DNA of 64,000 bases. It comes from Barthelona sp. PCE. Taxonomy: Eukaryota. The position numbers and the translations under genes are program-made. Position 1 is the stretch's first letter, and the number at the start of each line of letters is the position of its first letter. Shown piece after piece: positions 1 to 54,576 of this stretch. The stretch is from positions 558,001 through 622,000 of the forward strand of contig JAUFOR010000004.1 of NCBI GenBank assembly GCA_040285745.1, given 5' to 3'. Under the pieces are notes generated by a model. That model ran no database searches. It saw nothing but the letters and a program-made list of their open reading frames with translations, and was not told the origin of the DNA.

Positions 1-228
1 GACGAACTCAACGTCGACCACGTGCCTGACAACTGGGTTGACGAGAATCGCGTGAAGCAATTCCTCACTAAGACGCTGGGAGTCGGTAGCTCCGGCATCA
101 TGGTCGAGTTTGACCCCACCGCCACCAAGAAGGCGTTCAACCATTCCACGAGAGCCCCCAAGCGCACGCACCGTCCTAAGACGCAAAAGAAGAAACAAGC
201 GTTTAGCGCCAAAGAGGAGGAGAAGTGA
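1..228 (+). CDS. ORF1 (gag-like) C-terminal fragment of the retroelement, open from window start
   Basis: Frame +1 is open from base 1 (DELNVDHVPDNW...) to TGA 226-228, ending in a basic tail. Gag identity is inferred from position only. Confidence 0.6.
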   Translation, partial: DELNVDHVPDNWVDENRVKQFLTKTLGVGSSGIMVEFDPTATKKAFNHSTRAPKRTHRPKTQKKKQAFSAKEEEK

Positions 229-1689
229 AATCGTTCGTCTCCCCCCGCGCGTGATAGTAAATATCTATCCGACAAGGGTGTGGGAGACGCAAATGATCCC
301 AATGCGGTCACAGCGCTCGCGGACAGGGTCGGCGAGCTCTCCATCGAGAACGTCAAATTGAAGAAGGAGATCAAGAGCCTCAAGAAGGAAATCCCTAAGA
401 AGCAGCTCAAAGCCGCGAAGATGGAACTTCGCGCAGCTACCAAACTCGTGGAGCTCGAAGACAAAAGACTAGAAGCCATCAAAGCTCGGGAAAGGAGCAC
501 ACAGAAAACAAAAGCACCTGAGGACGTTAAACGGGAGAAGCCCCGTAAGGAGAAAGCACCAACAGCTACTAGCGTGCAGAAGATGATCTCCAAAGAGATC
601 AACAAACTCAAACACGAGGTTGTAGATGAGCGGAATAACGTCCAAATCTCAAGAAATCCGAAGGAGGTAGTCGGCACAGACACCATGCAGTGGCCGGCCG
701 CGGCGCCACCAGTAGCTCTGCTGAAGCACCTCCCACCCGACATCTTCCAGAAGGGCGGCCCAAGTCAACGAGTACTCAAAGAGGTGGTCCTAGGGGTTAC
801 CGGAACATGGGATATCCTCGGAACAGACCAGATGAAGATCAATTCAGCCGACACGCCCACGGAACAGTTCGTGAGGGACGCCGCGCGCGTCGCTGGCCTC
901 AGCTGCGAAGAAATTGAGAAGACAGTCCGACTGCTCGTGACTGAGGGCGTAACGCGCGACATGGTCGTTATCGAAGGAAAGAAGCCTCGCAGGCAGGAGC
1001 CAGTACGTCACTGGTACAAAGACGACGCCGTCGAATTGAACCTGGCCGTAACCGCGCTCAAAAGTAAGGACCTGATCAAAGAGGTCCCCATCGAAGAGAT
1101 CGAGGACGAACGAAGGGCATTCATTTCCATCGGCGCGGTCCCGAAGAATGCAGAACCGGACTCAAACAACATGTTCGCTCCGACGCAGAAGTTCGAATTT
1201 GACGTCACATCGCCGGACAACGAGCACAGGGTTATCGTCGACTGTACTAACACGAACTCTATGTTCGCCAACATTCCAATGGAACTCATCAAAACCCACT
1301 CTCTCGAGATTGTCATGGGTGGCAATCTCATGTATTCCGTCGACGCAAAGGATGGTTTCACGCTCATTCCACTGGACGAAGAGCTACAAAAACTGTTCTC
1401 ATTTACACACGAAGGTAAGCTTTATCAATGCACTAGAATGCCGTTCGGAGTTTCATTCGGCCCGGCCATCTTCGCCCGCATGATGAACCTGGCAACGACC
1501 GCAATGCGTGCGTTGGGATTCAACATCTGGAGCTACGTCGACGACGCTTTCGGATGGGAACGATCCCTCAGCAAAGCGAGGAACTCGATGATGCTGTTCA
1601 TAATCATCGCGTCGAAACTTGGCATCAAGCTAAACTACAAAAGTCCGTCAGTCCTTCGTACAAATTGGACATCATCGGCTACACGCTGA
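229..1689 (+). CDS. Retroelement pol, N-terminal part: coiled coil plus reverse transcriptase
   Basis: Motifs AVPK, RVIVD, SVDAKDGF, MPFGVSFGP and YVDD (1534-1545). The frame is open from 229 with first ATG only at 421. The true protein continues in the -1 frame at about 1640. Confidence 0.92.
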   Translation, partial: NRSSPPARDSKYLSDKGVGDANDPNAVTALADRVGELSIENVKLKKEIKSLKKEIPKKQLKAAKMELRAATKLVELEDKRLEAIKARERSTQKTKAPEDVKREKPRKEKAPTATSVQKMISKEINKLKHEVVDERNNVQISRNPKEVVGTDTMQWPAAAPPVALLKHLPPDIFQKGGPSQRVLKEVVLGVTGTWDILGTDQMKINSADTPTEQFVRDAARVAGLSCEEIEKTVRLLVTEGVTRDMVVIEGKKPRRQEPVRHWYKDDAVELNLAVTALKSKDLIKEVPIEEIEDERRAFISIGAVPKNAEPDSNNMFAPTQKFEFDVTSPDNEHRVIVDCTNTNSMFANIPMELIKTHSLEIVMGGNLMYSVDAKDGFTLIPLDEELQKLFSFTHEGKLYQCTRMPFGVSFGPAIFARMMNLATTAMRALGFNIWSYVDDAFGWERSLSKARNSMMLFIIIASKLGIKLNYKSPSVLRTNWTSSATR

Positions 1690-4394
1690 GCACCGACGAC
1701 CAGTCTGACGGCGGCCGGCTAGTCTCAACAATTAGACCGTCGGACAAGAACATCAGAAAGATCAGAGAGATGGCTCGCGTAATGCGAAATAGAATCGACA
1801 CAGCAGAACAAATCCCTGTCAGGGACATCATGAAGCTCGATGGCAAACTTGTATCATTTGCCAACGCCTCGACGATTCTTCAGCGGGTTCACCTACAGCT
1901 ACAAGCAGTACTGAAGGATCTCGACGCCCAATACGATAACGCGATATTTGACTCGAGCAGGAACAAGGGCCTACGCCTTCTCCTACCTCTTCCACTAGCC
2001 GACGCACTCACGAGGATCGTTGAATGTAACTTTGAACCGAAGACGCTGAGCTGCGGTAGAGCTAAGGTAACATTACTGAGCGACGCCATGAAGGACCAGA
2101 AACATATAGGCATTGGAGCGAAGGCATACCCAGACGACGACCAAGAGCTCTCGTTTGAACTTCTCCACAGGATGGGAGTGAACGAGCAAGGAGCAAGAAG
2201 GATGTTGACACTTCTCGACGATCTGCCAGAACAGGAAAGAGTAGACATCGAGCAGAACACTGTCGCAACAATCGCGGAGCAGGAGATGGTACCGATCGTC
2301 GAGCTACTCAAGACTAAGGGCAGACAGCTGAGGAACACCGAAGTCGTCTGGTATTGCGACAACACGAACGTATGCGCCGCTGTCGCGAAGGGCTACAGCA
2401 AAAACAAGGTCCTCAACAAGGGGGCCCGCATAGTGATGGAGCTGTGCGAAATGTGGGACGTGATCGTCACACCAATCTACATCAACTCAGAACAGAATTA
2501 TCTTCCAGACAGCATCTCAAGAGGAGCATCGTCGGAGTCGTGGACCAACTCTACGACATTCGTGCACGAGATTCTCCCAGCTAGGGTAATCGAGTTCAAG
2601 ACATCCGTCGTCGCAAGCCTCTACGAACCTGGACACATCCCAGCACTGTACGTCCGCGGTTTCCAGCCCACAAAAGGAAAGTCCAGGAGATCAACGAAAG
2701 CCGCACATGTGACAAGACAATGTCTCGGACAAGACCTCATCTCTCTAGGCGAGTATGACCTCAAACGGAATGCGCTCAAGGTCGACAATGTGGCGAATGG
2801 GACTGCACACTGTACAGGTAAGCTCAAAATCGTCGAAGGATTCGATGACACAAGATACACCGTCCCTCTATCGAATATGGCGATCATCACGAGAGACAAC
2901 GAAAGAATCGAGGCAACAGTTCCGACTTACTCCGCAGCCACAAGCTTAGAGATAGTCATTCTCAAAGTGTGCAGAACCGGCGCGGAAGTAGATGTGATCC
3001 TCCCCGGACCACTCCCGTCTTGCCCATTGTGGGCTACAATCGCACAAAAGACCATCCCATTAAGTGACGGATCCATAAAGATAAGAGTTACGAGAGAAAA
3101 GGTTCTCGGCGGCGAATCCGAGGACTACAAGCCCGCTGGAGCACGCACTCAGAACCCGGTACAGGTACGGGGCAAATCACTATCTCTGGCAGATCTGTTC
3201 GCCATCCCACCGTCAATGGACTACGACGAAGTGCTCGAACTCTTTCTGAAAAAAGGAGCGCACCAACCAACGAGGAACATGCTACATCGCTTCGGGAACT
3301 TCGTTCAAAAGGTGCACGGCACAGAAATAGTGGACGTCGCATGCCCAGGAAACGAAAAGAGACTTGAAGAGCTAATAATCGAGTTCAGATTCAGACTCGA
3401 ACAGGAAACAAAATCGAAGAGGCGTGCGAACGGCGACACCACCGAAGTATGGAGGTACACCTCAGATACGATTAACAGTTACATTTTCCACCTGCGTAAA
3501 GGACTGCTGGTTCTGAAAATGTTCATCACCGACAAGAAATCTCTCCTCACGACCGAAGAACTCGAGCAACTCGTCCAGCTTAGGGCGGCAGTAATCAGAT
3601 GCACACTGAGCGAGAGCTCAGAAACACAGAAATTCGCCATCAGCACGTCAGCAATCAGATTCCTGGCGGCAAGAGAGATTGAAGAGCTTAAAGCACTGGT
3701 CCAGGAAGGTACCACGAAGAAGAAGGCCCTTCAGAAGCTAAACAAAGTAAGAAGAAGAATTGCTATGATGTCATCAATGTACAACTTAGGATGCAGAGCG
3801 GCGTCTCTTGCCGCAGTCAAGACCCACCAAATTGAAGTCTCAAAATCCGGCGATGTCACGGTAACGCTGGACAAAGTGAAGAACCAACAGGGTCGACCAA
3901 CCAGCTACATGATCCCCAGAAACGTATGGGAGCTGGGCACACTGCACGACTATTTAAACGACGCTGTGCAAAGAGCAAAAGAAGGAGGTAAAGAGTTTAT
4001 TTTCTCGAACGGCGGAGAAGCCCAGAGCGTCTCGAATGCATTAAACACCATGTTCCGAGATTACAACGAGAAAATCAAGCAATCTGACCACAAGAATGCA
4101 AGCAAATTCAGAGTATTCAAAATGACAGCTCATGGCCTTAGAGCCGGCAGGGCAAAAGAGATAGCACAACATCCAGATGCGACTGTACGAGTATCAGCGC
4201 AAGGAATGGGTCTCTGGAAGGATGTGAAGGCGATGAACCTTGACTATCTCACGAAACCACTATTGACGTTTGAGGAACGAGAGGTGTTGAGTCCGATGGA
4301 ATTGGAAGGATGGGTTTTAGGCCACTTCCCGGACGAAACACCCTCTACACGTGAAGGCGAGCCTTCCCACGTGAGCGTTCCCCGACGTCAATAA
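1640..4394 (+). CDS. Retroelement pol, C-terminal part: RT thumb, RNase H, degenerate methyltransferase-like region, tyrosine recombinase
   Basis: KSVSPSYKLDIIGY (RT end); RNase H LLSDA, AEQE, YCDN, NYLPDSISR; YR catalytic set GCR (~3789-3797), KVK, HGLR (4131-4142), GLW, DY (~4242-4247). Confidence 0.92.
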
Positions 4395-4410
4395 ACCTAC
4401 TTCAGTATAA
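4313..4410 (+). repeat. Direct repeat B1 (98 bp), overlapping the end of the YR ORF
   Basis: Identical to 4546-4643 (ggttttaggccac...cttcagtataa). Confidence 0.97.
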
Positions 4411-4545
4411 GGTGACATACAGGCGCTAGCCTTCAGACTTTATACTTGAGGTAGTAAACAGCGGAGGGGGACGAAGCGAACCGTCATGTGTAGTAGGTGT
4501 CCGTAGGACCCGATACGGTTTTTCTTACCTTTTTCAAAAAAAAAA

Positions 4546-4643
4546 GGTTTTAGGCCACTTCCCGGACGAAACACCCTCTACACGTGAAGGCGAGCCTTCC
4601 CACGTGAGCGTTCCCCGACGTCAATAAACCTACTTCAGTATAA
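4546..4643 (+). repeat. Direct repeat B2 (98 bp), 3' terminus of the element
   Basis: Identical to 4313-4410, preceded by an A10 tract and followed by AT-rich host DNA. Confidence 0.97.
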
Positions 4644-5145
4644 TTATTTGAAACAAAAAATTGTTTCAATATATGCGTTAAATAATTAATTTTAAATCCT
4701 ATTTAACCACAAATTTAGTCATATAACAAAAACATTTTTCAAATAACTTTTTTATCAACGTGTAATTACTATTTATGGACTAAAGTTAGTATGTATGGAT
4801 AAAAAGTCTTTATATCCCTGTAATCAAATTTTGTGTGTGTGATTGAAAATACTACAATATTTTATTGCAACTCAAATATTTCCTATCTTAATTTTTAACA
4901 ACGTCTTATATCAATTTTGATTAAACATTTTGATTTAAAACTAATTTTAAAGGCCAATAAGACTTTATAATAAATAAAATGAATCAATATTTAAATTTAA
5001 ATTTTACTTCCTATCATTAAAGAAAAAAAGTTTTTGTTCACAGTAGTAAGATAACCAAAAAATGGCACTGATCAGGACGATCCTGTAATTGATTTTGAAC
5101 AGAGAATGGAATAGAACGTATGCGGGTGTATTTCAATTTCTCACG

Positions 5146-5332
5146 TTTCCTATTTATTTTATTTGTACTATTTAGTAATTGAAATACTACTATTTTTCAG
5201 ATGTATGGATTTCCAAACTCTGAAGAAGGTACCCGTTTGCGGCACCATATCCGAACGTCAGTGATGAGACTAGGAAAAGAAAATCATCCTTATAAACAAT
5301 AGGAGAAAATGTGTATTCCTATATCTCTGTAG
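5146..5332. repeat. Duplicated non-coding module, copy 1
   Basis: Colinear blocks tttcctatttatttt..tgtactat..attgaaatacta..ttcagatgtatggaYttccaaact, gatgagact..gaaaatcat and tctctgta are shared with 7806-7980. Confidence 0.8.
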
Positions 5333-5341
5333 TCATGGAAA

Positions 5342-7474
5342 CTATTCATTATGATAATGCTCATGATAATCTGGCATGTGATACTCAAAGATGGACGCCT
5401 CTGCCAGGAAGGATGGAAGGTGGAACCTTTCCACTGTGGGATTCATCGATTCCGGGTCTTCCTCAACGTTATATGTTTTCAACACCATTGTCTTGGTCTC
5501 TTCTTCGTATGACATGTCTTGAATAACGTTGTTAGGCAGATTTGGATCGTGGCTTATCTTCATATCAGGAGAATATTGTAAATTGTTGTTTGTGTAAAAA
5601 CGCGTCTTAATTGCACATGCTTCAATGTATGCTTTAATGATACCACCCCTCACGTGTATGTATGAATCTCCCACGAAATCATTGAAATAGTTGCCTTCCT
5701 CAATTTTTTCATTCATACTATTCTGATAAAGGTGAACAGGCTCTAAGAAGCTTCCTGTTGACCAATCTAAACAGTGTAAATGTTGCGTTGTTGCAACCCT
5801 ACTGTGTGTACATACAACAAACAGCTGATGATCAGGTGTTTCAGCTAATGGACTAGGGTTGAAGTAAACATCATATAAATATTCATGTTCAAAAACAATG
5901 TGCTTTTGAACCTCCACGTCATACCCGTTGACATTAAGCTGAAAAAAATGGATTGCTTCTTCACATAAAATGCACGCTGAATTATCAAAATGTGAACCAT
6001 AAACACTTCGAATATAATTATTCGGGGGAAGCTCTAAAATCACCTTTTCTCCCAAATATATCAGTTCTGTATCTTCACGATAGTCAACATTTAAGGGCAA
6101 CCCTTGAATAAAACCGCGGTTTTTAGAACCGCAATGAGGTAAAATGGTTGTGATTGGCTTAAATTCTGAGCCGGTCCAGCATAATTTGACATATGTATTT
6201 GTTTCACTATGTTTCTCTGCCATTACAAAAAAATCATCTCCTTCATTTGGATGAACTGATAAGATCTGGCACCACACACGTGAAAACGGTTTCCTGCACC
6301 CACGCAGCACAATAAGCTTCCTTTCTTTGAAAAAAAAGTAACATCTTATTGAAGCGATATGACCATACACTTCCTCTATCCCATCAAAAAAAATGCGTTT
6401 TGGTTGAAGACTGTTCAAACGCAAAACCTCCTTACTAACCTCTCTAAATTTGATTGGGCCATAACGTCCTGTTCTTCTATCTTCACCAAATAAAACACTA
6501 CATTTACGAAAGGAACTATCATTCAAGTCTATGTGTTTCAAACTATGGCAGAGTACATTCTTAAAATTCATTTCAACCTCTGATATCTTCAATTCGCCGT
6601 TTTCGATATGAATTACCACACAACTTGATCCAAATCCAATAAGTAACATTAACAAAACATCTTGAGTAAGCGTTAATAATGCAAAATTTGAGTACATGTA
6701 AATATTCAATCCTTTAAGCTGCGGAAACCTTTCTGTCAAGTTAACTTGGTTCCTTTGACTGTCAAATATTACCAATTCATCAACTTTATAATTGTCAAAG
6801 CTAACAGAGCAAATGCAATCCGAGTTTAAACAGCTGATGTATGATAAATGAACACCACCATGTAACTGCTCAATATCAGGTTCATGTGCCTCGTCCATGT
6901 CATCAACAGAAAAATTGTAATGCCATATGAAATTATCTTGGCAATACCTCAACAAAATGTAGTTTGGAGTTCTCACCGAAATTGAGTAATATTCTCCAAG
7001 ACATCTATAATCATAGGTTATAACATTTAATATGTAGCATTGTATCAACTGCCTGTTATCAACGGTTTCTTTAATGGCGAATAATAGGTGGTTTTCATCC
7101 AACGGAACTATTCCGCTTGATAGACTCTTAATCATCGGAAACGGAAAGGGTACTATTCTTCTTGTATGTTCTTCATTCATGACATCATTAAATAATAAGA
7201 TATCAAAATGGGTTATAATACCACTGTCATCAAAAAGCTGTTCGATGATCATGTAAGATTCTCCAGCTTTTAATTTGGATGTGTATTGAAGAGGCTTACG
7301 CGTATCCTCCACATATCCAATAAAGTCCTTGCCTTCAATGGCGCTTTCAATGAGGCTGATTTCGGTGATTTCTCTTGACTTAAGCAATACTACGCCCTCT
7401 CCCTCAAATATCATCTGCCCATCAGGATAAGCCTGCATGACAAGGTCTTCCTCGAATTTACGAACCCTAGGCAT
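5342..7474 (-). CDS. Hypothetical lineage-specific protein (~710 aa, possibly beta-propeller rich)
   Basis: Long uninterrupted ORF, probable start MPRVRKF at 7474; C-terminus similar to 10059-11783. Confidence 0.75.
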   Translation of the reverse strand: MPRVRKFEEDLVMQAYPDGQMIFEGEGVVLLKSREITEISLIESAIEGKDFIGYVEDTRKPLQYTSKLKAGESYMIIEQLFDDSGIITHFDILLFNDVMNEEHTRRIVPFPFPMIKSLSSGIVPLDENHLLFAIKETVDNRQLIQCYILNVITYDYRCLGEYYSISVRTPNYILLRYCQDNFIWHYNFSVDDMDEAHEPDIEQLHGGVHLSYISCLNSDCICSVSFDNYKVDELVIFDSQRNQVNLTERFPQLKGLNIYMYSNFALLTLTQDVLLMLLIGFGSSCVVIHIENGELKISEVEMNFKNVLCHSLKHIDLNDSSFRKCSVLFGEDRRTGRYGPIKFREVSKEVLRLNSLQPKRIFFDGIEEVYGHIASIRCYFFFKERKLIVLRGCRKPFSRVWCQILSVHPNEGDDFFVMAEKHSETNTYVKLCWTGSEFKPITTILPHCGSKNRGFIQGLPLNVDYREDTELIYLGEKVILELPPNNYIRSVYGSHFDNSACILCEEAIHFFQLNVNGYDVEVQKHIVFEHEYLYDVYFNPSPLAETPDHQLFVVCTHSRVATTQHLHCLDWSTGSFLEPVHLYQNSMNEKIEEGNYFNDFVGDSYIHVRGGIIKAYIEACAIKTRFYTNNNLQYSPDMKISHDPNLPNNVIQDMSYEEETKTMVLKTYNVEEDPESMNPTVERFHLPSFLAEASIFEYHMPDYHEHYHNE

Positions 7475-7805
7475 GAATAGCCGTGATGAAGTAGGTGAAT
7501 ATTGAGATAGCTTGAATTTCTTAAATATTAGTGCTTGCACGTGGCATATACAAATGATATAATGCACCTGAAGCGTAAAAAGAAAGCGAGAATGTGAAAC
7601 AAAACTGCATTTGCATTTCTATCCCCTCACAGTTTTATTGATGTGGTTCGCAGGGCTCACGGCGCGTGAAACGTAAGATTGTTGGCACGTGAGGGCATTG
7701 GCTTGATTGTGGGGCACTTTTTTGCTGCGTTGTGGGTACGGATTGCAGATAATATATTTGAGTGTTTTGCAAATGAACTACAACCCAAATTTTATTCTTT
7801 TATGA

Positions 7806-7980
7806 TTTCCTATTTATTTTTTGTACTATCAATATTGAAATACTATAAACTTTCAGATGTATGGACTTCCAAACTTAATTCTCTGTAAAGAGTCTGTTTA
7901 CTCTCCCTTACCCCCCGTTTACATGGATGGATGAGACTCTGGAAGAAAATCATGCATCACAGCTTCTTATTCTCTGTAAT
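7806..7980. repeat. Duplicated non-coding module, copy 2
   Basis: Colinear similarity to 5146-5332. Confidence 0.8.
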
Positions 7981-8084
7981 AATTGTTTCTATTTACACAA
8001 ATATAATATTCGTACTTATTCTCTGTAAACTATCCACTAGCACATACGAGTCAGAAAAACTCTCAGAAAATCATTTTAAAAAAA

Positions 8085-9944
8085 TCAATACAAAAGAAGT
8101 AATAAACAAAAAAACACAAATAACATAAGAAAAAAGTAAATTACCTTATTATGTTTCTCCATAGATCCACATCCACAGCATTCTATTTTCTTATATGTAT
8201 TTATAATGTGTTGCATATTACTTTCATCAAAATTAGGATCATAAACAGTTGTATAACCATGAATATTGATTATATTGGTTCTTCCCAATTCAATATGATA
8301 AACACCTGCACGTTGTGCAATCTGCTTAAAAACAATCCAACTGCGAAACGGACGTATCTCAATATAATCAATATTTACCTTGATTTGTTTTCTTTCTTTA
8401 AATCCACGATCAGTGATTATCGCATGAACAATGTCATCACTTTTTAAATCAACTCCAAGATATTCATTGTTCACGTACAAATTCTTAATTCGATGTCTTT
8501 CTCTTTCAGTATACAATTGAATACCACTTGTGTCATATACATAGATATACGACATACCTTCTAACGCCAGGCATAGCAGAAAATACTTCCCATGACCATC
8601 CATTATCAATTGGCGATCTTTATAACCAATAGAAGGTAAATCATTGGTAACATCAAACTTAAAACAATGTGTGTATGACAAAACTCTATTTTTGGTCTTA
8701 AATGAATAAAACATACCTGATGTGCCGCTATACTCGCATATAACGGCACCTTCACTATTTCCACTAATTATGTAATCAAAATCATCATTGAAACGCAATT
8801 CAGTACAAAATCTCTCTCTATCAAGTTCAATACACAACATTTCGGATTCAACGACCAACAGAGAAACGTGATAGTCGTTTTCACTGTCAAAACAAATGCG
8901 CTGCTTAACATCAATTTCGCTCATACTTACTTCCACTTCTTTTTTGGGTTGTTCTGGTATTTCTTCCTGTTTGAGAGTCTTATGCACTTCATTCTTGACA
9001 GCAACATTTTGTTTTGAAATTGTATGCGATTCATGTTCAAAATAAACAGGAATATTATCGACTGTATGGAATACAGGAGCAGATGGAGCAGATATATCAA
9101 TCACAGGAAGTATTTCACAATCTTCAGTATTCGCAGGAGCAGTTATACCACCAGGTTTGGCAGTCATATTCATGGATTTTTGAATTGTGTTGTCAATCTC
9201 AATATTCGAAGTACTCATTGTATATAGTTGAATACTTGGAAATGAAAGAGAAATAAACACATTTTCATTGCGATCAATGACATTACACGCGTCAAATGTG
9301 AAGCTGTTGTTAACAGTTATAGATACGTCAAGCGAAGCAACAATATAAGGCAGCAAAGCCTGCTCTTCCGATTCCAAGTTGAATAATCCCACAACGGAAT
9401 CGTTTAAATGCAACTGTTTGGTTGCGATCACCCAGTTCTGTGGACACATGATAAAACTTGTAATTGGAAAGGGGAGTTTGTGCTCGGTTTCGTCTACAAG
9501 TAAGCCATTTTTAAGGATCATGTACGTCATCAAAACGCTTTGATTGGTCGTAATGGCGCCCATAGCTCTGTCAAAAACACTGATATGAGTGTGCACCTCC
9601 GGAACAACGACTTGATTCAGTATCTGAATCCCATCATCATCGTGCTTGAATGTACGATAATGTGTCTCGCACACACCATCCCCGCTATTGCTGCTGACAA
9701 CTCCAAGCGCACCGTAAATGCTGCAGCACGCCATAAAGGCTTTCCCAAAAGGCAAAGCATCGCTGATCAAAGAAGAGATCTCAGGGTCGAGTTGGGCATG
9801 GGTAAATAGTCCGGTATTCTTCGAGAATGATGTTATTTTCCAAGTGCGATCGTCACATTGGGACAGCCAAAATTCACTGTCTACAAATGAACATTTTGGA
9901 ACGTTATTGTATGATTTTTGTGGGTTTATATGTGTTAAGAGCAT
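8085..9944 (-). CDS. Hypothetical protein with C-terminal hydrophobic tail anchor
   Basis: ~620-aa ORF ending VIYFFLMLFVFFCLLLLLY. Confidence 0.7.
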   Translation of the reverse strand: MLLTHINPQKSYNNVPKCSFVDSEFWLSQCDDRTWKITSFSKNTGLFTHAQLDPEISSLISDALPFGKAFMACCSIYGALGVVSSNSGDGVCETHYRTFKHDDDGIQILNQVVVPEVHTHISVFDRAMGAITTNQSVLMTYMILKNGLLVDETEHKLPFPITSFIMCPQNWVIATKQLHLNDSVVGLFNLESEEQALLPYIVASLDVSITVNNSFTFDACNVIDRNENVFISLSFPSIQLYTMSTSNIEIDNTIQKSMNMTAKPGGITAPANTEDCEILPVIDISAPSAPVFHTVDNIPVYFEHESHTISKQNVAVKNEVHKTLKQEEIPEQPKKEVEVSMSEIDVKQRICFDSENDYHVSLLVVESEMLCIELDRERFCTELRFNDDFDYIISGNSEGAVICEYSGTSGMFYSFKTKNRVLSYTHCFKFDVTNDLPSIGYKDRQLIMDGHGKYFLLCLALEGMSYIYVYDTSGIQLYTERERHRIKNLYVNNEYLGVDLKSDDIVHAIITDRGFKERKQIKVNIDYIEIRPFRSWIVFKQIAQRAGVYHIELGRTNIINIHGYTTVYDPNFDESNMQHIINTYKKIECCGCGSMEKHNKVIYFFLMLFVFFCLLLLLY

Positions 9945-10058
9945 TTTCACTCATATAACAGAAGAATGAAAAAAAGGAGAATATTGAACGAATTTAAATT
10001 GTCAATCAAAACTTTATTTATTCATTGCAAGACACAGAACGGTTATAACAATATCAAC

Positions 10059-11783
10059 TTAGGATATCCTCGAAATAGTAAGATGTCCAGAGATATCAGT
10101 AGCATGGTAATGAAATGTTTGCATATTAGGTATGTATTGAGGCAAAAACAGTTTTTTTTCATTCAAGTTCAGACCGTTATAGCCATCCATTGATTTAATT
10201 ACTAAAGTTTTGCTTTGAGCATCAAAGGTAACAGTTTGTGTTTCTTCATCTTCAAAATCTACACCAACAATGCATGTGGACAAACAGGATCCATCGTGTG
10301 AGAGTTCAATAAATGGGTGTGGGCCTGAACATTGTGCGTTATTTGTTCCAAAGAGGCGAGAAATAGTTGTACTCATCTCATACCTATGTAATTGTTCATT
10401 TTTAGTGAAAAAAACATTACTAACGGTATCAACAAGCGCAAATAAAACCTCTTCTTCATAATATGGTGCAACAAAAGATCTTTTAAATTGGGAATTATTT
10501 TCAAGCTCAAAGATTTCTTTGTTAATAATTTGGAAATAATTTTCACTTTTTTCATTTATCTTCACTTTGACAATATCAACAAAGTGGTAATTATCTGAGA
10601 AGCAAACAATTGTGTATTCGTCATTGTTCCTTGTGCATTTTGTTGCAAATATATTATCAACCATCAAAAAATGGTTTTTAACCAGTAATTCACATCCAAA
10701 CAAATATACATGCCAGTTCCCTTGGTGCCCATTCCTTACAAACATTGGTAGTAAATCATTTTCATCATGCAAATAGTTCCATATATTATTTAAATCGGTT
10801 AAGGTGTTGTTGAACCACATAAAAACATTGGAATAATATCTTAGAAAAAACACAGGCTCACCCGAAGGAAGGATTACGAAATTTGAGACAGATAATCTAC
10901 CAATTGAGTAAAATGAAAAAAACCATATTTTTTCATGCTTTATGCTCCAAAAAGCATCATTGTCTGATTGATGAGACGGTTTAAATCGCAACAATCCATT
11001 TTGATAGACCATAATATTATCCATTTGATGTCTGTACAATAGCATTTCTCCTATAAATCTGAAACTCAACAAAAAGCAAATTGTATTCTTGAATCCATAA
11101 AATTCATGGTCAACACAGCTGAACACGCTTTGAAGGCCAACTTTTACCATTTCAAACGGGAGAATTGTTGAGATGTGGTCTACATAGTACATTTGTCTTA
11201 ATCCATCTTTGCTGATAACCATATGGTGTTCAGTAAGCCATGCAACGGTGTATGAATCCATGGACCACTCCAAAACAATGATGCCCTTGCTATCTATATA
11301 CATCTCCTCCTTGAGATGAACATAATCAACTCCATCAAAAAAAATGCATGTATCGCTTGAAGTGAACATCACCCAGTTGGTGTTGAAGCATGGAATTACT
11401 AATACGGGGAAGCTGACGAACATAATAGGTTCTAGTCCTTGTTGATGAGAATACTGATGTATGGTTGAATCTTTTTTAGATTGCATAATAATTGGGCAAG
11501 TACCACCAGTAAATATTTTGTTCATGATCGTATATCCTTCCAATTCGCACATTTCGCCTGTAGTGGTGTTCATAACCGTTGCATATCCTGCAGTACGATT
11601 GAAAATTACACTATGGTCATTGTTTAGGGTGAAAACAGTGTCTGCATCATCAGGAAACTCATGGGGATCCTCAGGTTCGCGATAAAAACCGTATTTCTCC
11701 AGCAATTCTTCCACAAAATCAAAGCGTTCGTTTGGCTCAAAAAAGGAATCATTTTCACTTTGTAATTTGCGATAAATAGGCAT
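10059..11783 (-). CDS. Hypothetical lineage-specific protein, paralog of 5342-7474
   Basis: 574-aa ORF; C-terminal QTVTFDAQSKTLVIK...LFLPQYI..FHYH resembles QDMSYEEETKTMVLK...FHLPSFL..FEYH. Confidence 0.75.
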   Translation of the reverse strand: MPIYRKLQSENDSFFEPNERFDFVEELLEKYGFYREPEDPHEFPDDADTVFTLNNDHSVIFNRTAGYATVMNTTTGEMCELEGYTIMNKIFTGGTCPIIMQSKKDSTIHQYSHQQGLEPIMFVSFPVLVIPCFNTNWVMFTSSDTCIFFDGVDYVHLKEEMYIDSKGIIVLEWSMDSYTVAWLTEHHMVISKDGLRQMYYVDHISTILPFEMVKVGLQSVFSCVDHEFYGFKNTICFLLSFRFIGEMLLYRHQMDNIMVYQNGLLRFKPSHQSDNDAFWSIKHEKIWFFSFYSIGRLSVSNFVILPSGEPVFFLRYYSNVFMWFNNTLTDLNNIWNYLHDENDLLPMFVRNGHQGNWHVYLFGCELLVKNHFLMVDNIFATKCTRNNDEYTIVCFSDNYHFVDIVKVKINEKSENYFQIINKEIFELENNSQFKRSFVAPYYEEEVLFALVDTVSNVFFTKNEQLHRYEMSTTISRLFGTNNAQCSGPHPFIELSHDGSCLSTCIVGVDFEDEETQTVTFDAQSKTLVIKSMDGYNGLNLNEKKLFLPQYIPNMQTFHYHATDISGHLTISRIS

Positions 11784-12124
11784 AATTTTGCTGGACAGTG
11801 TGCAAGTATCTGTAGTGTGTGCTTGAGATCTTTAAAAATGGTCATCTGGTTGCAATCTGTATCAATGATGGTGATAATATTGTTTAAACACAGCCTTGAT
11901 TCAAAATTACACTTTCTTGGCATGGAAGTTATAAAACTCGAATGTTTTCATAAATAAGAAGCCCCGAAATGATGAGAAATTGAAATGCACCTGCATGTTT
12001 CCTATTCTTTTGCTCTTTTGCAATCATTACTTATTACCCTTACCATACACATCTGAACACTGCTGTGGACCGATTAATCATGCTCCAAAGCTTCCCTATC
12101 ATCTCTTTTGAAGTCAAATATTTC

Positions 12125-23084: not shown

Positions 23085-24116
23085 ATGGACCACCTACACT
23101 GTAAAATCAACGACCAAACACTCGTTGTTGAGAAATTGGAGCGATTCGTTGATGATAAAAAGTGTGTAGTTAAGTTAGTTGGCGCAAGATTACCTGAGGC
23201 TATTAGAACCATCCGGTTGTCGAAAGTACCGCGAGTTATTCTCTTTATCCGATATTTGAGTGACTTTAACCTTACAAAATGCAGAGAATTGTTAACTGCT
23301 CACCCAGAAATTGCCAACCAGACAACTGCATACCGCGAGTGGCGCCCTGTACACTACTGCGCGGACTTTGGGACAAAGCAGCAGTTGAAATTACTAATGG
23401 ACTTCAACATTGATTTGAATGTTATCGATAAGAACCATCAACATCCTCTTCACATTGCAGCATCCTCAAACAATCTAGGTATGGTCGTTTCGCTCCTTAA
23501 GAACAATGATCAAATTCAATATGTTGGAGACATACACGGAGAAACACCTCTATTTCTTGCAATTCAACGCCATGCATCGATTATGAACAAGAGAAACAAC
23601 GAGGTAAACGCAAACCTCGCTCTTCTTACCGTCAGGACGCTTCTACAGTGCGGGTCTAATCCAATGCTGTACACTGCTTCTGATCAAATGACGTGTTACC
23701 ATTTGGCAAGCCAGTATGGTGACTACGAAGTTCTGCAGCTGCTTCTGAGCGCCGGAAAGAGTTATCTATCAGACATCAACCACGTTGACAAGGAGGGTGA
23801 TAATTGTTTACATTTCGTATGCTACGAAGCAAAATGCGCTCGTTGTGTGCAGTTGCTCATTGAACACGGCGCCGATCCTTCGCAAAGAAACAACCTTGAG
23901 AGGCTTCCAGGCCAGGAACTTGGTTCTAATGAAAAGGATCTCGCCATAAAAGCATTGTTGAATAACACCCAAATGTTTAGTGGGAGTCAACGAAAGTCAA
24001 AGAGAGCGTTGCATGCCCAAACAAGGAGTCCTTTCCTGAGCCCAGGCAACCCTTACAGCCCTTACAGCCCTCTATCTCCTTTGAACTCACCAAAATCTCC
24101 ATACAGCCCCCTCTAA
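23085..24116 (+). CDS. Ankyrin-repeat protein with SP-rich tail
   Basis: PLHIAAS, GETPLFLA, TCYHLAS, GDNCLHFV, LLIEHGAD. Confidence 0.9.
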   Translation: MDHLHCKINDQTLVVEKLERFVDDKKCVVKLVGARLPEAIRTIRLSKVPRVILFIRYLSDFNLTKCRELLTAHPEIANQTTAYREWRPVHYCADFGTKQQLKLLMDFNIDLNVIDKNHQHPLHIAASSNNLGMVVSLLKNNDQIQYVGDIHGETPLFLAIQRHASIMNKRNNEVNANLALLTVRTLLQCGSNPMLYTASDQMTCYHLASQYGDYEVLQLLLSAGKSYLSDINHVDKEGDNCLHFVCYEAKCARCVQLLIEHGADPSQRNNLERLPGQELGSNEKDLAIKALLNNTQMFSGSQRKSKRALHAQTRSPFLSPGNPYSPYSPLSPLNSPKSPYSPL

Positions 24117-25075
24117 TCAATCTTTTGTTTTTGCTTCTTTTTACGTGATCGATGGTAGAGCATGATGACGCTGAGGAGTCTTGCTACAAAGGCAGGCAGT
24201 ATGACCTGGAAGCAGTGAATAGCTTCGTGGTTTGTTCTTGCATTAAAGAAATATCGTGATAGCATTTGGGTAGTTGAGCTCATTAGAATGATTATAAGCA
24301 TTGTTGGATCTGTTCTTTCGATGATTGTGAACCCTGCTTCTACAATAAGATCAGCAGCATTTGTTTTTAAAGAGAAAAATAGGATGGTTGTCCATAAAGC
24401 ACTCATTTTTAATTTTAGACGAGGTTTAGTTATTAAATATACAATAAACGGCATAATAAAGCCAACTGTTCTGTAAAAAGTTCTAGAATTATGATTTCCA
24501 CTTGAAAAAAGCATCCATCCGAGTGAATAATCCATTTTCACCTCAGAATCTACAAAATTGAGACCATGGCGCACGAGATCAAACCACAATCGCACGAATC
24601 CAGCTAAAAAACAAAGAATTCCCTCAAATGAATCACCGATTGCATTTGTTGCCAGTATAGCTGTTCTAGAATCCAAAAAAGGTAAAACAATGAAGCACAT
24701 TGAACGAAAGCACTCAAACACAGTTCCCAGTAGTAATAAAAAGGGTACAGCAAGAGAACAGTTGATATCATGATATGCTTCATGCAGAAACGGAAACATT
24801 CCACATCCCAGAGAGAAAAGCACGGCTTCCGACATAGATTTGCTGTGGAAAGCAATAGTAAAGGCCAGAAGATGAGGAAATACGACTTGTAATAATTTTA
24901 AGCCCCATACTTGAAGAATTGTCGGGTTTTTAATGTTTGTGAACATGAACATCTCATAAGGATTCAACACCAGAACCGTTTCTATAACCAAAAATGCAAG
25001 GAGGTAGCTCAACGCGAAATTTGCCTTCTTGTGCTTTTCTCTCAATGTTGAGCATGTCAGATCACAGTCGTTCAT
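24113..25075 (-). CDS. Hypothetical polytopic membrane protein
   Basis: Many hydrophobic segments and a basic C-tail; start uncertain. Confidence 0.7.
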   Translation of the reverse strand: MNDCDLTCSTLREKHKKANFALSYLLAFLVIETVLVLNPYEMFMFTNIKNPTILQVWGLKLLQVVFPHLLAFTIAFHSKSMSEAVLFSLGCGMFPFLHEAYHDINCSLAVPFLLLLGTVFECFRSMCFIVLPFLDSRTAILATNAIGDSFEGILCFLAGFVRLWFDLVRHGLNFVDSEVKMDYSLGWMLFSSGNHNSRTFYRTVGFIMPFIVYLITKPRLKLKMSALWTTILFFSLKTNAADLIVEAGFTIIERTDPTMLIIILMSSTTQMLSRYFFNARTNHEAIHCFQVILPAFVARLLSVIMLYHRSRKKKQKQKID

Positions 25076-25130
25076 TTGCAATTCTGACTTTTCAACCAAA
25101 AAAACTAATTGAAAGAGATCGAAGATGTAT

Positions 25131-26558
25131 TTACAAACGTGCACCCAAATCTTTTGATAAGACTCTATCAAGATCCTTTAGTTCTGAATCCTGAGACTTT
25201 CCAGGGCACATTAACTTCAATGCCAGAGTTAAAATTCCAAATCCTAAGAAAGCAATGATAAAATAACTCCATGTGTGCTTAAGGTACTTGATATTCTCTA
25301 TTTGAACACTAACAAGCGTCTTAACAAGCGCCACCCTCGAGTAATCACCGAAAGACTTGACACAGAACTGTACAATTGGGAAGACAGTAATGAGTAACAA
25401 CCATACATTGAAAAGGATTGAGTTCAACGTTGTGTCGTTCTTCCTCATCTTGTGCACTGTGAAGAACAGCACCTTGAGGCCTACGCTGGCGACACCATGT
25501 AAAACAGCCCAGAGCAGGTAGAGAGCGCAGAGAGCGTACGCAGCAATACCCAAGAGAGGGAAGAAACCATCAAGAGCAATGAAGAAGGAGTTAAGGAAGG
25601 GGTGGACGGCGGGCTTAAAGAAGAGATAGAGTAGCACATGAACGTACCAGAAGCCACTGATAACAAAGAATAGAATACCCAAGAAGCCTTTGAACCAGAA
25701 CCAGATGGGTGAACCACCGTGCTTATAGAACGCAAGCTTTGTGATATCGTTCTGTGCTTGTAATTGTTCAAAGGCATTCTTCCACCTGTTGAACATTTTT
25801 TTCTGTTGGCGTGTTGGTTTGTCGTTGAGCTCAAGTTGGGAGCGCAACTCAACGCCGATCTCGCGCAGACGCTGACCACGGGATGAGAGGGTGCGCCTAT
25901 GCTGAATGAACTTAGTAGTTACGCCAGATTTAGGTCTCTTTCTATAGTCATTGATGAGTGAGAATGGAAGTGTGAACAGACCAATACCGCCAAAGATCGT
26001 CAGGAAGATGTTTCCAAGGAAGGAAATCATGCCTGCAAGGAATACTGGATAGGAAAGATCAATTTCCAAGTCGACGGTGTTTAGTGTCTGTGAAGAGTAA
26101 TCGCCAGTCAGTTCCTTCGGTGCGCATGTCATGTACTCAACGGGGAGTTCAATCTTACCAAGGAAAATGTAACCAATGAAAAAGAAAAGACAGAAAATGA
26201 TGAGGAACATGATAGCTGAGCATAAACCTGACATGATGGATGCTTTACCCTCTGCGTTCATCGACTCGTAGTAGTACTGAGCGAATGGAATGATGAGTAC
26301 AATGAATGCAATGAGTGCGTAGAGAAGCATGTTCCACATCTCCACGATTGGATAGGTGTCATCTCCCACGTTAGCAATGTCGAACGGTAGCATGAGCACC
26401 AGTGACTCAGCTATGAGAAGACCAAGGATGATAACAAGACGTGGGAACCAACCAACCCATTTATCCTCTGGGTGTCTGTAGAATTGGATGAATATGATAT
26501 TTATGAAGAAGCATACTCCCAGGATGCTTGCAGCAACTATTCCAAGGAACCAGTTCAT
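25131..26558 (-). CDS. LMBR1-like membrane protein
   Basis: HPEDK..WFPR, LMLPFDIAN, IPFAQYYYE, FGGIGLFTLP, RP, K.DTTLNSILFN. Confidence 0.9.
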   Translation of the reverse strand: MNWFLGIVAASILGVCFFINIIFIQFYRHPEDKWVGWFPRLVIILGLLIAESLVLMLPFDIANVGDDTYPIVEMWNMLLYALIAFIVLIIPFAQYYYESMNAEGKASIMSGLCSAIMFLIIFCLFFFIGYIFLGKIELPVEYMTCAPKELTGDYSSQTLNTVDLEIDLSYPVFLAGMISFLGNIFLTIFGGIGLFTLPFSLINDYRKRPKSGVTTKFIQHRRTLSSRGQRLREIGVELRSQLELNDKPTRQQKKMFNRWKNAFEQLQAQNDITKLAFYKHGGSPIWFWFKGFLGILFFVISGFWYVHVLLYLFFKPAVHPFLNSFFIALDGFFPLLGIAAYALCALYLLWAVLHGVASVGLKVLFFTVHKMRKNDTTLNSILFNVWLLLITVFPIVQFCVKSFGDYSRVALVKTLVSVQIENIKYLKHTWSYFIIAFLGFGILTLALKLMCPGKSQDSELKDLDRVLSKDLGARL

Positions 26559-27125: not shown

Positions 27126-30100
27126 TTACGGTCTGCTCACGAAAAGAAGAATAGAAGTGCACAAGAGAACTGTAGTGAGCAGGATGTAATGCTGTCCGAC
27201 CGCTAACGCAATGAAATACACTGAAAAATTAAATACAAATGTAAAAACAAGGGTTTTTGGCTTTTTGATATAAGTGGCACACAAAAAGAGAACGGGGAGC
27301 AGCAAGAAAAGGTAAGAGGGTGCCTGTGCAGACATACTGAGCTCAGCAGAGGCGAGGGATGGAGTGGTTGCGCAGAAGAAAACATTCAGCTGAACAAGAA
27401 AAGCATAGCACAACTGTTGACCAAAAGATTGCGATTTTCCGCGCTTTTGAGCGAACCAAAGGATCAGAGCAGCGAGGTGCAGCGTGACACACACCCATAA
27501 CAGGGGACCTGAAACGCGGAGAGTCAGGAGATTAAGAACGTCAAAGCGAGCACCGAGGAAAGGGAGCACATAGCACACAAGCATGATGAGGCCCGCGCCC
27601 TCAGCACGCTTCAAAGCTGCGGCAATCGTGGAAATTGCAGCAATTGAGATCAACGAAATGAAGAAATTGGAAAAATTGGTTTTTGCACACATAAACGCAT
27701 AGCCAACGTAGCCGTCGTCGCACATAGAGCAAAGATACCCGGTGGAGTTGCGGCACCTATCTCCATTGCAGTTGACAGTGGGACAAATAACAGCTTTCAT
27801 AAACGAACCCTCAAGGTAGTGGTCTGGACTTGCGTACTGTATCACACCGCTGGAACACCGCACTGTTTCATCGCACGGAACGCATAAACCTTCTTCGATA
27901 CGTGTTCCTTCAGAGCAGAAGCAGGCGTTAATATCAGAACTGCCTTCCACTGAAGTTTTGGAGAGCGGACATTCAGCACACGGTTCATTTCCGATCTCAT
28001 TCTTATACGTTCCTGGGCCACACACGACGCATTCGTCTGATATCAGCGAAAGTGTGTGCCCAACATTGCACTTGCAACTTCCCTCAGTATACGATGATTT
28101 TTGAGAGCATGTTACGTTACCGATAGTGAAAACGTTAGATATGAGACTCGTGTTCGACACGAATCGCACCTCTATGAAGTCATTTGGCTCCACCAAAAAA
28201 GAGGCGGGAACGTGTAGGCACCGTTTTCGCTGTATGTGAATGTTGTGTTGTAAAGTGAGATGCCACCAACAAGAGCAGTGAGTTCAATGGTATCGCGAAC
28301 AGCCGCACCACTGTAGTCTGTGAAATTAAGTTCTAGAATTAGATCAAACCCAACAGCAGCCTGAACGACTCTTGTATTGAATGAGTAAACGGTTGGTTCG
28401 AAGCTGATGGTATGCGTGGCATTATATGGGCCCAGCGCTACCGTGACACCGACATCCTGCGTGGGGTCAGCGACAGTTAAGGTTTTAGTGGTGTCGTTAT
28501 AAACACACCCACTATGTGCATTACATGACACTTGTGCTGGTCCTGTTATTCCGCCATACGCATCAGCACAGTCGATATCAACTATTGTTGTTGCGTTTGG
28601 AAGGAAAAATTCGTCTTTTTGAGGTTTAAAACTGCAGGAAACAGTTTGACCAACGAGAACTTCGAGATATCCAGTTTCGGACACGCCATCAGCAGAAAAG
28701 ATAAGCTGATGTGTCCCGTGCGCTTTGGGTATCGGTATCCACACTAGATCAGAGACCACGTTGCGACGGATACCATCAACAAATACAAACGGAACTGTGA
28801 TGACATGGCGACGGATGTTGAGGAACACGCACCTCAAAAGAGCTGATTCCCTGTCGATAGATACTCCACCGGAAATAAGCGGTACGATCTCTGTCGGCTG
28901 ACTGTAAAGATGACCGTGAAGCTCAAGCTCAACTAATGAGTTGCACTCGTTGTTGAACTCAACGGTGACCGATTCGGCAGCGTAACGATGATTCAGAAAG
29001 ACAACACAAACTGTTTGGTAGCGCAATCCTGACACATAGTCCTCGCACACAACTTCATCTCCGCTGTAAACAAACGTATACTCGTCGTCAAAAGTGAGGG
29101 ACACAGACGGTGTGCACACGTCGTTCATGAAAAAGAGAGTGTTTTCAACATACACAGGCTCAGCAACACTAACAGTGTGTGGTGTGGTCGCATACAGCCC
29201 GTCGCAGCGCTTTCTGCTGTTTATACGCGGATCGTCTGCTGTGAATGGCAGGTACCTAATGTAAGGCATTGAGAGGATATCGCTGAACACCTCAACACTT
29301 GTTGGCAGAGAGCTGTTGTAGCATAGCTCGGACTGGGGCATTGTTATCGTGAGGAGCACGGGATGTGTGTAATACTGACCGGCTGTTGTCGATAGCTGAA
29401 TCATATACACCCCAGCGGTGACAAAGTTGCACTGTGCTTCCATTTCAAAGGTGACGCGGCACTCGACTGTTGCGTCGCTTGTGATGACACTAAGTCCATC
29501 GAATACATCTAGGTCTGTTCCCTCGAGGGTGAAGCCCTTTTGTGTAAGGAACATTCTCTGTGGCGATACAGACAATAATATAGGTTTCACAACGACACAC
29601 ACCTCAATTTCGATGCTAGAGGCGAATGAAGATACAGTGAGTGTTGTGTTTTGCTTCAAGCGAGAGGTGATCTGGACCGACTGAGAGTCCAGCTTTGCTA
29701 CTGTAGCATTCGGCATTGAGAAGCTTATAATGTCCATTGGTAGTGGCTCAGCGAACCGCACAACTGAAGTGTGAACCGCATCGTATGGCACTCTTTGGAC
29801 AGAAATGGGTTTCGCATCAACTCGGGTGAATTCCAGTGTTTTACCAATAGGTTCTGCAGATACTGTGCTTCCAGAGCCACTAACGACAATGCAGCTGTTG
29901 TTTTGTGATGTGAAAGGACAGACATCACCAAGATCGTTGGTGAAAACGAGGGCATCAAACGGTAGGTTTTCGCCACAGAGTAAAACTTTAAAAGTATCGT
30001 CTAGAACTATGTACTCCTGTTGATAATCAAGAGAAAATCCAGAAACAGTGCCTGCAGCCTGTGTTATATCATCGCAGACTAAATCAGCAAGTATATCTTC

Positions 30101-41122: not shown

Positions 41123-41343
41123 TTTCGATACAACAATACGAATGAAAAGGGTATTCAATGTGTAATTAGGAAGTTGGTTGTTGTAGTGTATAGTTACTCT
41201 TATGGTTTTTTAAGCGAGGTGCATTGTCTTTTTAAGGAATAAACATCCACATGAAGCATGCAAAAAGAAGATATTTTGGAATATTGAGCAAAGCTGAAGT
41301 GTTGTGCCATTCATTACCTTTTCACTGATAACTATTTTGTAAC

Positions 41344-49660: not shown

Positions 49661-50220
49661 TTGTATCTTAGATATAAAATTGAAAACAATGCCTTGCACA
49701 AAGAAGTAAAGATTCGTAAAACGTGTTTTTTGCTGTGTTATAGCTTAAGTTCAGGTAGAAACTGCTTCTAATTGAGCTACGGTGTATGTTTATTCACGCG
49801 AGTGCGCATATTTGGGAAATGCAAAATTAATGAGCTTTTTTTGGAATCTCTTATCTTGAATTTGTACAATAATGAGTGTACTATTTAAATTTATTACTGT
49901 TATATGCGCGTCACTATTTCAAATTTACAATAGCATTGGTTAATAGAAAAAATGAAAAGAAGCAGGGGTTCTTTAACAATGTTCCTATTTGTTCTGACTT
50001 GATATTTGCCTGTGAAATAAAATTTACAAACGTTTCTGACATTTTCTGACCTTCTTTTCGTATGGATATTCCAAGCTAGTAAATTGTGTAGTCGTTTGTA
50101 AACGCTATTTTCAAGAAATATTGAGGTACAAACTTATCACCAAATGTATTTGAGCGAATATTTCTATTGTATAATGATGCTGATGCTGTTTTAGATTTTT
50201 CTTCTTTTTTTGAAGGAACA

Positions 50221-53193: not shown

Positions 53194-53227
53194 ATAAGAA
53201 GAATGCAAAAAGAAGAAAAAGGAGAAA

Positions 53228-54496: not shown

Positions 54497-54576
54497 TACA
54501 GGAAATGGTGAAAAAGAATAATACACCTCTTTTGTATATTTAAAGAACTGTGGGTGATGTTTTAAAGGGCACATTA

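Follow-up and report, generated by a model that had tools for sequence, protein, structure and literature searches.

The DNA considered here is a 64,000-nt stretch of the barthelonid metamonad Barthelona sp. PCE (GenBank assembly GCA_040285745.1, contig JAUFOR010000004.1, positions 558,001 to 622,000), hereafter referred to as the window, and its first 4,643 nt are occupied by a retroelement whose 5' end lies upstream of position 1. The element, all features of which are read on the forward strand, is GC-rich, its GC content being 0.53 in the first 2-kb bin and 0.50 in the second, before a fall to 0.37 and, over the remaining window, values of 0.34-0.48. An exact direct repeat of 98 nt (100% identical) is found at 4313-4410 and 4546-4643, with a 135-nt spacer between its copies, and a search for inverted repeats of at least 20 nt returned no pairs within 1-8000. 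The upstream copy (B1, 4313-4410) takes in the final 26 codons of the polyprotein described below, together with its stop; the spacer (A2, 4411-4545) terminates in an A10 run; and the downstream copy (B2, 4546-4643), identical to B1, is followed by AT-rich host DNA. The repeats, together with the drop in composition at 4643, indicate that the element occupies 1-4643, extends upstream of the window, and ends in split direct repeats of the form B1-A2-B2. By analogy with the A1-[ORFs]-B1A2B2 scheme, in which ORFs are open reading frames (PMC8547959), A2 is predicted to be a copy of a 5' terminal A1 upstream of the window, and the predicted start of the element, bearing a copy of 4411-4545, would lie ~1.6-1.9 kb upstream. 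A second copy was not detected within the window by blastn or tblastn, and neither an Rfam scan of the whole window nor a tRNA scan of 1-12000 produced a match.

Reading frames were called from stop to stop with the standard code, which gave an open stretch at 229-1689 in frame 1 (486 aa) and another at 1437-4394 in frame 3 (985 aa), the latter containing the segment 1554-4394 in which an earlier reading of this DNA, made from its letters alone (the sequence-only reading), had placed RNase H (RH) and the catalytic residues of a tyrosine recombinase (YR) without interruption. Considering that the DNA is ~50% GC and that five copies share 97.9-99.5% protein identity, an open frame of 985 codons by chance is excluded. 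Frame 1 is also open from the window start to 228, and a TGA at 226-228 alone parts this piece from 229-1689. We regard 1-225 as the 3' end of a gag-like ORF, of which ~1.5 kb, together with the 5' repeat, lies upstream of the window. It stands in the gag position and is gag-like by position; in P0002, a paralogous gene model, this part has no Pfam family and no CCHC zinc knuckle, CX2CX4HX4C or looser Cys/His pattern. Gene models P0001-P0005 carry ~497-571 aa of gag-like sequence upstream (about 497 aa in P0002-P0005), and the complete product amounts to ~1,880 aa (1,876 aa in P0002). The ~1,390 aa first proposed for the fused protein is too short, as it leaves out the gag-like ORF, which shares the frame and precedes a single TGA.

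Five gene models represent the family in this organism. The model of the locus itself, P0001, is 1,923 aa long, and P0002-P0005 fall in the same 90% cluster; the five derive from contigs of 1.33, 1.42 and 2.13 Mb and are 97.9-99.5% identical over aligned residues. Five near-identical copies imply a young, multi-copy family. All five models read ...AKEEE|NKYLSD... at the gag/pol junction and bypass the TGA identically by removing 33 nt (224-256), a GT...AG segment that is a multiple of three and is modelled as an intron over the stop. This identical bypass implies that the TGA is present in all five copies and, since the family is young, probably also in the active master copy. A hairpin can be folded at 230-297, 3' of the TGA (z -2.2; 6 of 200 shuffles fold as well). 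An alternative code with TGA as a sense codon was ruled out, as TGA terminates 6 of the window's 29 long host ORFs.

Within this copy, the reverse transcriptase (RT) is thrown out of the RH-YR frame at a run of four A residues (1639-1642), which is one A shorter than in the paralogs. Adding one A gives LNYKKSVSPSYKLDIIGY, and the four paralog models (P0002-P0005) read KLNYKKSVSPSYKLDIIGY / NYKKSVSPSYKLDIIGY / KLNYKKSVSPSYKLDIIGYTLSTDDQSDGGRLVSTIRPSDK unbroken, exactly as the one-A repair put forward in the sequence-only reading predicts. In the model of the locus itself, P0001, the shift is masked by an 80-nt GT..AG pseudo-intron (1643-1722), across which the protein jumps from NYK to ISTIRPSDK. 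Because all four paralogs are continuous here, the break is either private to this copy or an assembly error, and is not part of the element's design. Comparison with other copies, the check proposed with that repair, thus upheld it: RT, RH and YR are not split into different frames in any of the four paralog models, and each of the four related families described below likewise carries them in a single model.

The RT begins in frame 1, where a coiled coil is followed by RT fingers and palm with the YVDD motif (229-1641). Pfam RVT_1 matches residues 356-469 of the 486-aa ORF (nt ~1294-1635) with an E value of 9.6e-13 and 48.7 bits (cut-off 29.6), and residues 27-59 give a weak bZIP-type coiled-coil match in Pfam. 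Because of the frame change, the RVT_1 match ends at profile position 185 of 205, and in the unbroken P0002 it reaches 205 of 205 (E 2e-14). RT thumb and connection follow in frame 3 (1638-2057), as judged from that complete match in P0002 and from hhalign alignments to P0018 and P0023. RNase H (2058-2525) ends in a YLPDSISRG motif and carries the catalytic residues D149, E216, D241 and D291 (counted, like those of YR, from nt 1638). The last three are identical across all five aligned sequences, and D149 is found in each one that extends over its position. The phmmer matches outside the family, which involve residues 208-310 of the query, fall on the RVT_3, RT_RNaseH or RNase_H regions of those proteins. 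An AlphaFold model of RNase H with the adjoining middle domain had a predicted local distance difference test score (pLDDT) of 39.8 overall; only the RNase H part (58-78) is usable, and with this part of a low-confidence model Foldseek retrieved RNase H chains at TM(target) 0.5-0.64. Aligned with hhalign, the RT/RH profile matched a DIRS-type protein (P0018) at 96.6% probability and a Gypsy-type protein (P0023) at 95.7%; since the two match equally well, hhalign gives no placement.

The tyrosine recombinase (3207-4394, with a TAA stop at 4392-4394) comprises an N-terminal helical domain of DNA-binding type and a catalytic domain. Its catalytic residues are R (3795-3797), K (3879-3881), H (4131-4133), R (4140-4142), W (4215-4217) and Y (4245-4247), and as R720, K748, H832, R835, W860 and Y870 they are invariant in all four families. 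A four-family profile searched against the PDB matches Cre with E 0.003-0.007, R, K, HxxR and W aligning to Cre R173, K201, H289/R292 and W315. Pfam Phage_integrase matches with E 0.0014 and 18.9 bits, below its cut-off of 27.1. Structure searches with an AlphaFold2 (AF2) model of the YR (pLDDT 56.6) brought up tyrosine recombinases and type IB topoisomerases and nothing else: the top Foldseek matches are Cre, Xer and lambda Int (E 7e-4, probability 1.0, TM 0.25-0.32), and VIA gives Z up to 8.2, with Z 7.9 and a root-mean-square deviation of 5.3 over 171 residues for the catalytic domain alone. A single-sequence phmmer search of the YR catalytic part against the PDB gave chance matches to designed proteins only. 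Individually weak, the sequence and model scores all point to a tyrosine recombinase.

Between RNase H and YR lies a conserved middle domain of ~224 aa (2526-3197) with the motif ...SAAxSLEI..LK.RTG..V.V.LP.PLPS.P.W. The domain is conserved in all four barthelonid families. Pfam, including Dam (PF05869), gave no match to it at E <= 10 in any of the four proteins, and its AF2 model, with pLDDT mostly below 50, is not interpretable. A von Willebrand D-like structure, the best match in the ESM Atlas, was rejected as its score of 0.85 is below the level deemed meaningful.

Relatives of the element are few. A phmmer search of 1.84 billion cluster representatives, with the RH-YR frame (918 aa) as query, gave 14 matches at E <= 0.001: one to its own cluster, three that extend beyond RNase H, and ten to RNase H alone. 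The three that extend further are all hypothetical proteins of Barthelona sp. PCE, namely P0006 (36% identity) and P0009 and P0017 (25-27%), and the full-length relatives are restricted to these three Barthelona sp. PCE families, at 20-36% identity. The P0006 cluster includes the full-length P0020 (1,836 aa); P0009 is 1,518 aa and P0017 1,893 aa long. In each of the four families (that of the window, P0020, P0009 and P0017), RT, RH, middle domain and YR occur in a single gene model. Labelled references for Ngaro, PAT, DIRS1, VIPER or TATE were not among the phmmer matches. A word-indexed protein search with the 985-aa ORF found no match, and a word-indexed profile search returned the element's own cluster and one Gypsy-type protein only. 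A scan of metagenomes with a protein pattern produced 234 pattern matches, none of them confirmed, and one with an exact 41-nt piece of A2 produced none.

The end of the polyprotein encoded inside B1 (4313-4394) carries a tail motif, W..G.P...EG.P, that is kept in P0009 and P0017, which are 20-25% identical. Its retention in distant relatives suggests that repeat B is under constraint in two roles, as protein-coding sequence and as a signal for recombination or replication.

Considering these features together, we estimate a probability of roughly 0.8 that a young copy of a DIRS-order YR retrotransposon, of the split-direct-repeat type A1-[ORFs]-B1-A2-B2, accounts for window 1-4643, which would hold the 3' three-quarters of it. 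With the same confidence, we take its native plan to be one frame that encodes, in order, a gag-like ORF, a single TGA, a coiled coil, RT, RNase H, the 224-aa middle domain and YR, with neither protease nor DDE integrase. Several points count against this interpretation. A1 is outside the window, and the split-direct-repeat form is seen at the 3' side only (B1, A2 and B2). The YR scores are individually weak, in that Pfam is below cut-off, the Cre match has E 0.003-0.007, the model has pLDDT 56.6 and TM 0.25-0.32, and a Z of ~8 is middling. The context of the stop (TGA A) and a hairpin of z -2.2 do not constitute a recognised readthrough signal. The state of the TGA and of the A run in the other copies was deduced from gene-model proteins and not from DNA, and the eukaryotic predictor that made these models invents short introns, e.g., at 1643-1722. 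Among short contigs from three DNA runs of one study, which covered 18 of 30, 16 of 30 and none of the bins, the segments 158-314 and 1639-1642 are both uncovered. Finally, 4 of the 5 gene models are locally disrupted, which bears on current activity.

Both irregularities of the coding frame admit other explanations. At the A run, a programmed -1 ribosomal frameshift setting the ratio of RT to RH-YR would restore the protein, and frameshifting is common among retroelements. However, RT and RH-YR are in one frame at the same place in all four paralogs, the sequence C AAA AGU does not fit the X XXY YYZ pattern of slippery heptamers, and to our knowledge no retroelement splits its RT in the middle of the last conserved block; as the paralogs need no frameshift and the site is not slippery, this explanation is given next to no weight. 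We find it much easier to believe, if still at somewhat less than even odds, that the break does not exist in the organism's DNA and arose when a long-read assembly misjudged the length of a homopolymer in a multi-copy repeat, the copy itself being intact. The break sits in a homopolymer that is longer in all four paralogs, and, besides the missing base, only 11 aligned residues differ from P0002 and from P0004 each. Moreover, the barthelonid and skoliomonad genomes in which the only relatives occur are reported, in the part of the account that bears on assembly, to have been assembled from Nanopore reads with Illumina polishing (PMC11316075), and the minus strand of the window at 27126-41209 has four abutting long ORFs with frame changes, some beside T5-T6 runs. 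On the other hand, no read spans the site, and local disruptions occur in other copies too, which means either genuine decay or errors of a general nature. In the gag/pol region, the 33-nt segment 224-256 could be a true intron, splicing of which would make the Gag-Pol fusion, with Gag alone being made from unspliced RNA. Its GT and AG ends, its length divisible by three and its use by 5 of 5 models fit such a role, as does P0006, another Barthelona sp. PCE model, which drops 13 aa (39 nt) at the equivalent junction where P0020 reads through; RNA-seq hints are also described as having been used in the gene-model pipeline (PMC11316075). Yet the same predictor made a plainly artificial 80-nt intron over the frameshift, the host genes in the window are long ORFs that are almost intron-free, and no recurring splice-site consensus was seen at host frame changes. 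We therefore treat a true intron as a tentative, rather unlikely, alternative to readthrough of the TGA.

Doubts of another kind concern what the element and its middle domain are. That the copies are not mobile at all, and descend from a retroelement that the host has domesticated into a gene family, is highly improbable: the copies are annotated as ordinary genes and some models are fused to host genes (P0005, to an ABC transporter), but domestication would have to account for terminal split direct repeats, a sharp composition break, five near-identical copies on different large contigs, the disruption of most of these copies, and the retention of a full set of transposition enzymes. A degenerate form of the MT-like (methyltransferase-like) domain of DIRS and PAT elements, the label given to the middle domain in the sequence-only reading, is a more serious candidate, and would make the element PAT-like (Toc3-type) rather than Ngaro-like or a new branch. 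The middle domain directly follows RNase H, as the MT-like domain does; the nearest non-barthelonid RNase H relatives include fragments in which RH is joined to Dam (2 of 10, P0015 and P0018, are above the Pfam Dam cut-off, and P0010 is below it); and a SW....TF start, common to P0018, P0015 and P0010, was noticed by eye. With hhalign, the strongest local match falls on the P..S...W stretch at the end of the Dam-like domain, with a score that only 2 of 100 column shuffles reach, and the combination of split direct repeats with a lack of Gag zinc finger would suit PAT elements of Toc3 type, as characterised in the relevant part of PMC4157794. Against this, hhalign with the Dam-like domains of P0018, P0015 and P0010 gives a probability of 0.5% (E 0.13, 15 columns), Pfam Dam finds nothing at E <= 10 in the four proteins, and the profile alignment to P0018, at 96.6% probability, stops exactly at the end of RNase H, where the Dam-like domain begins. 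In addition, the middle domain lacks D.DRFA, a motif carried by the three reference fragments, and phmmer brought up no DIRS or PAT protein through the middle domain. The MT-like label is accordingly not sustained by the Pfam and hhalign results, and we consider the relationship doubtful.

Returning to the preferred interpretation of a YR retrotransposon of split-direct-repeat type, its affinities can be judged from the portions of published descriptions that deal with structure. YR retrotransposons consist of gag, pol (RT and RH, with MT in DIRS) and YR, without protease and DDE integrase (PMC3783388); DIRS elements have inverted repeats and Ngaro elements A-pol-B-A-B repeats (PMC3783388). 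PAT elements are described as a DIRS-group lineage with an MT domain and split direct repeats, and Ngaro and VIPER as lacking MT and having internal repeats 3' of YR (PMC4157794; PMC3266345). The absence of an aspartic protease, remarked upon in the sequence-only reading, holds (there is no D[ST]G motif in the 1,876-aa P0002, and no protease or rve integrase family in the Pfam scans), but it is no peculiarity of this element, being a defining trait of YR retrotransposons in the account just cited (PMC3783388). By anatomy, and as judged from these descriptions, the element is Ngaro-like. It shares with Ngaro elements the order gag-like, RT, RNase H, YR, the internal B1-A2 (followed by B2) downstream of YR, and the lack of a protease, a DDE integrase and a recognisable MT domain. 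In Ngaros of Cafeteria burkhardae, which have the arrangement A1-[ORFs]-B1A2B2, gag, RT/RH and YR are given as separate ORFs (PMC8547959). A closer parallel in coding is offered by fungi, as the YR ORF can share the RT-RH frame in all fungal Ngaro groups according to Muszewska et al. 2013 (PMC3783388). The element differs from Ngaro in its conserved ~224-aa domain between RNase H and YR, in having the gag-like ORF also in the same frame, behind one TGA, and in a B1 that overlaps the end of the coding frame.

Likenesses to other groups are partial. With PAT-like elements (Pat1, Toc3 and kangaroo) the element shares split direct repeats, as far as its 3' end shows, and the order RT-RH-(domain)-YR, as in the echinoderm form of Pat1 and in Toc3 (PMC4157794), as well as an RNase H resembling the RH+Dam fragments and, as in Toc3, no Gag zinc finger. 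However, the Gag zinc finger of Pat1-like elements is absent from P0002, the MT-like domain that defines PAT is not demonstrable here, and PAT elements are described in the same account with separate ORFs (PMC4157794). TATE elements of Bodo saltans likewise have split direct repeats, and Ribeiro et al. 2019 describe two copies with all three genes in a single ORF, of 1,464 aa (PMC6681497); in these, however, the order is gag-like, YR, RT/RH (PMC6681497), whereas YR comes last in the present element, and there is no phmmer similarity. DIRS-1 of Dictyostelium and other DIRS1-like elements resemble ours in encoding RT, RNase H and YR without protease or integrase, and in their RT/RH resembling that found in retrotransposons with long terminal repeats (LTR), but are described as having inverted terminal repeats, an internal complementary region, a YR ORF upstream that overlaps pol, and an MT domain (PMC3266345), none of which was seen in the part of the element inside the window. 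Because order and repeats differ, the element is neither DIRS1-like nor VIPER/TATE-like. Outside the order, the gammaretrovirus MuLV and Tca2 also have gag and pol in the same frame with a stop between them, reported to be passed by readthrough, the stop of Tca2 being UGA; these are, in contrast, LTR elements with protease and DDE integrase, and with a pseudoknot and a favourable stop context. In the literature, we found no description of the entire coding set within one frame, with gag included behind a lone stop, and a full-text search judged by title or abstract found no YR retrotransposon in metamonads.

The sequence-only reading had suggested that the fusion of RT and recombinase might define a distinct lineage. 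This was correct inasmuch as the element is very isolated, with three Barthelona sp. PCE relatives beyond RNase H, but the fusion itself has precedents, at least as fungal Ngaro and Bodo TATE elements are described in the passages cited above. We conclude that the element is a divergent, lineage-restricted branch of a known kind of mobile element and not a new kind. A bolder proposal, which we advance tentatively and think likelier to be wrong than right, is that barthelonid metamonads have their own deep branch of YR retrotransposons, of superfamily rank beside DIRS1, PAT, Ngaro and VIPER/TATE, with all coding in one frame, including a new domain unrelated to the MT-like domain, and with no gate other than a leaky, conserved UGA or a micro-intron of 33 nt.

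A mode of replication can be proposed in which the coding plan, catalytic residues, 3' repeats and multi-copy youth are taken from the data and the steps from the established model of the order. The full-length element transcript would be translated, and most ribosomes would halt at the TGA, yielding the gag-like protein. A minority would get past it, either by reading through or on RNA from which the 33-nt GT..AG segment had been removed, to produce a ~1,880-aa Gag-RT-RH-X-YR fusion (X denoting the middle domain) with no protease to cut it. RT and RH would then synthesise cDNA, which, through the redundancy of the A and B repeats, could be completed as a circle with a B|A junction. Insertion into the chromosome would follow from recombination of this junction (...CAGTATAA|GGTGACAT..., the sequence seen at 4410|4411) by YR, with no target-site duplication expected.

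Two further observations concern regions that take part in this scheme. The end of A2 (4534-4545), immediately 5' of B2, is an A10 run followed by GG, and a purine-rich stretch, GGAAGGATGG, also precedes B1; that such stretches could serve as polypurine-type primer sites for second-strand synthesis is pure speculation. At the gag/pol junction, families that are only 36% identical are both modelled with a tiny in-frame intron (33 nt, and 39 nt in P0006), and P0020 translates the stretch as a basic peptide. The shared tiny intron may represent a real, regulated bypass of the gag stop.

If the bolder proposal of a deep barthelonid branch is true, the active enzyme would be a single protein of ~1,880 aa, without a protease, that both reverse-transcribes and carries out site-specific recombination. 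Few YR retrotransposons are known and little is understood about them, and the circularisation of their cDNA and its recombination have mostly been deduced from repeat anatomy. The present element is young (98-99% identity) and compact, has RT, RNase H and recombinase on one polypeptide, and resides in a small, nearly intron-free genome; its youth, compactness and fusion would make it a convenient natural system for studying the physical coupling of reverse transcription and recombination. It would also extend the DIRS order to Metamonada, and it adds a data point for viewing the fusion or separation of ORFs as a labile character and not as a lineage marker. There is a practical consequence as well. 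The elements have been entered as hypothetical host proteins, with introns that were invented and, in one case, a fusion to an ABC transporter, and therefore the genome annotations of these protists need masking of transposable elements. That fusion, the model P0005 (2,533 aa in total), is joined 3' to an ABC-transporter-like host gene and is an annotation artefact, elements having been left unmasked in the source annotation.

Downstream of the element, the window holds host genes. The four long minus-strand ORFs at 27126-41209 (385, 1,932, 448 and 2,020 aa) have short overlaps and frame changes and resemble one giant gene of ~4,700 aa broken three times, a similar case being found at 24113-26558. 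Some of these junctions lie beside T5-T6 or A4 runs, and a consistent GT..AG consensus was not found at them; the frame changes could reflect short introns or assembly errors of the homopolymer indel type. A Pfam scan of 13 long host ORFs (590-2,020 aa; 5342-11831, 28172-43245 and 50125-57315) left eight with no family at E <= 1e-5, which suggests a host proteome that is very divergent or rich in orphans. Neighbouring ORFs are ordinary conserved genes, encoding eIF3d, ELP3, a UPF1-like helicase and an LCAT-like protein.

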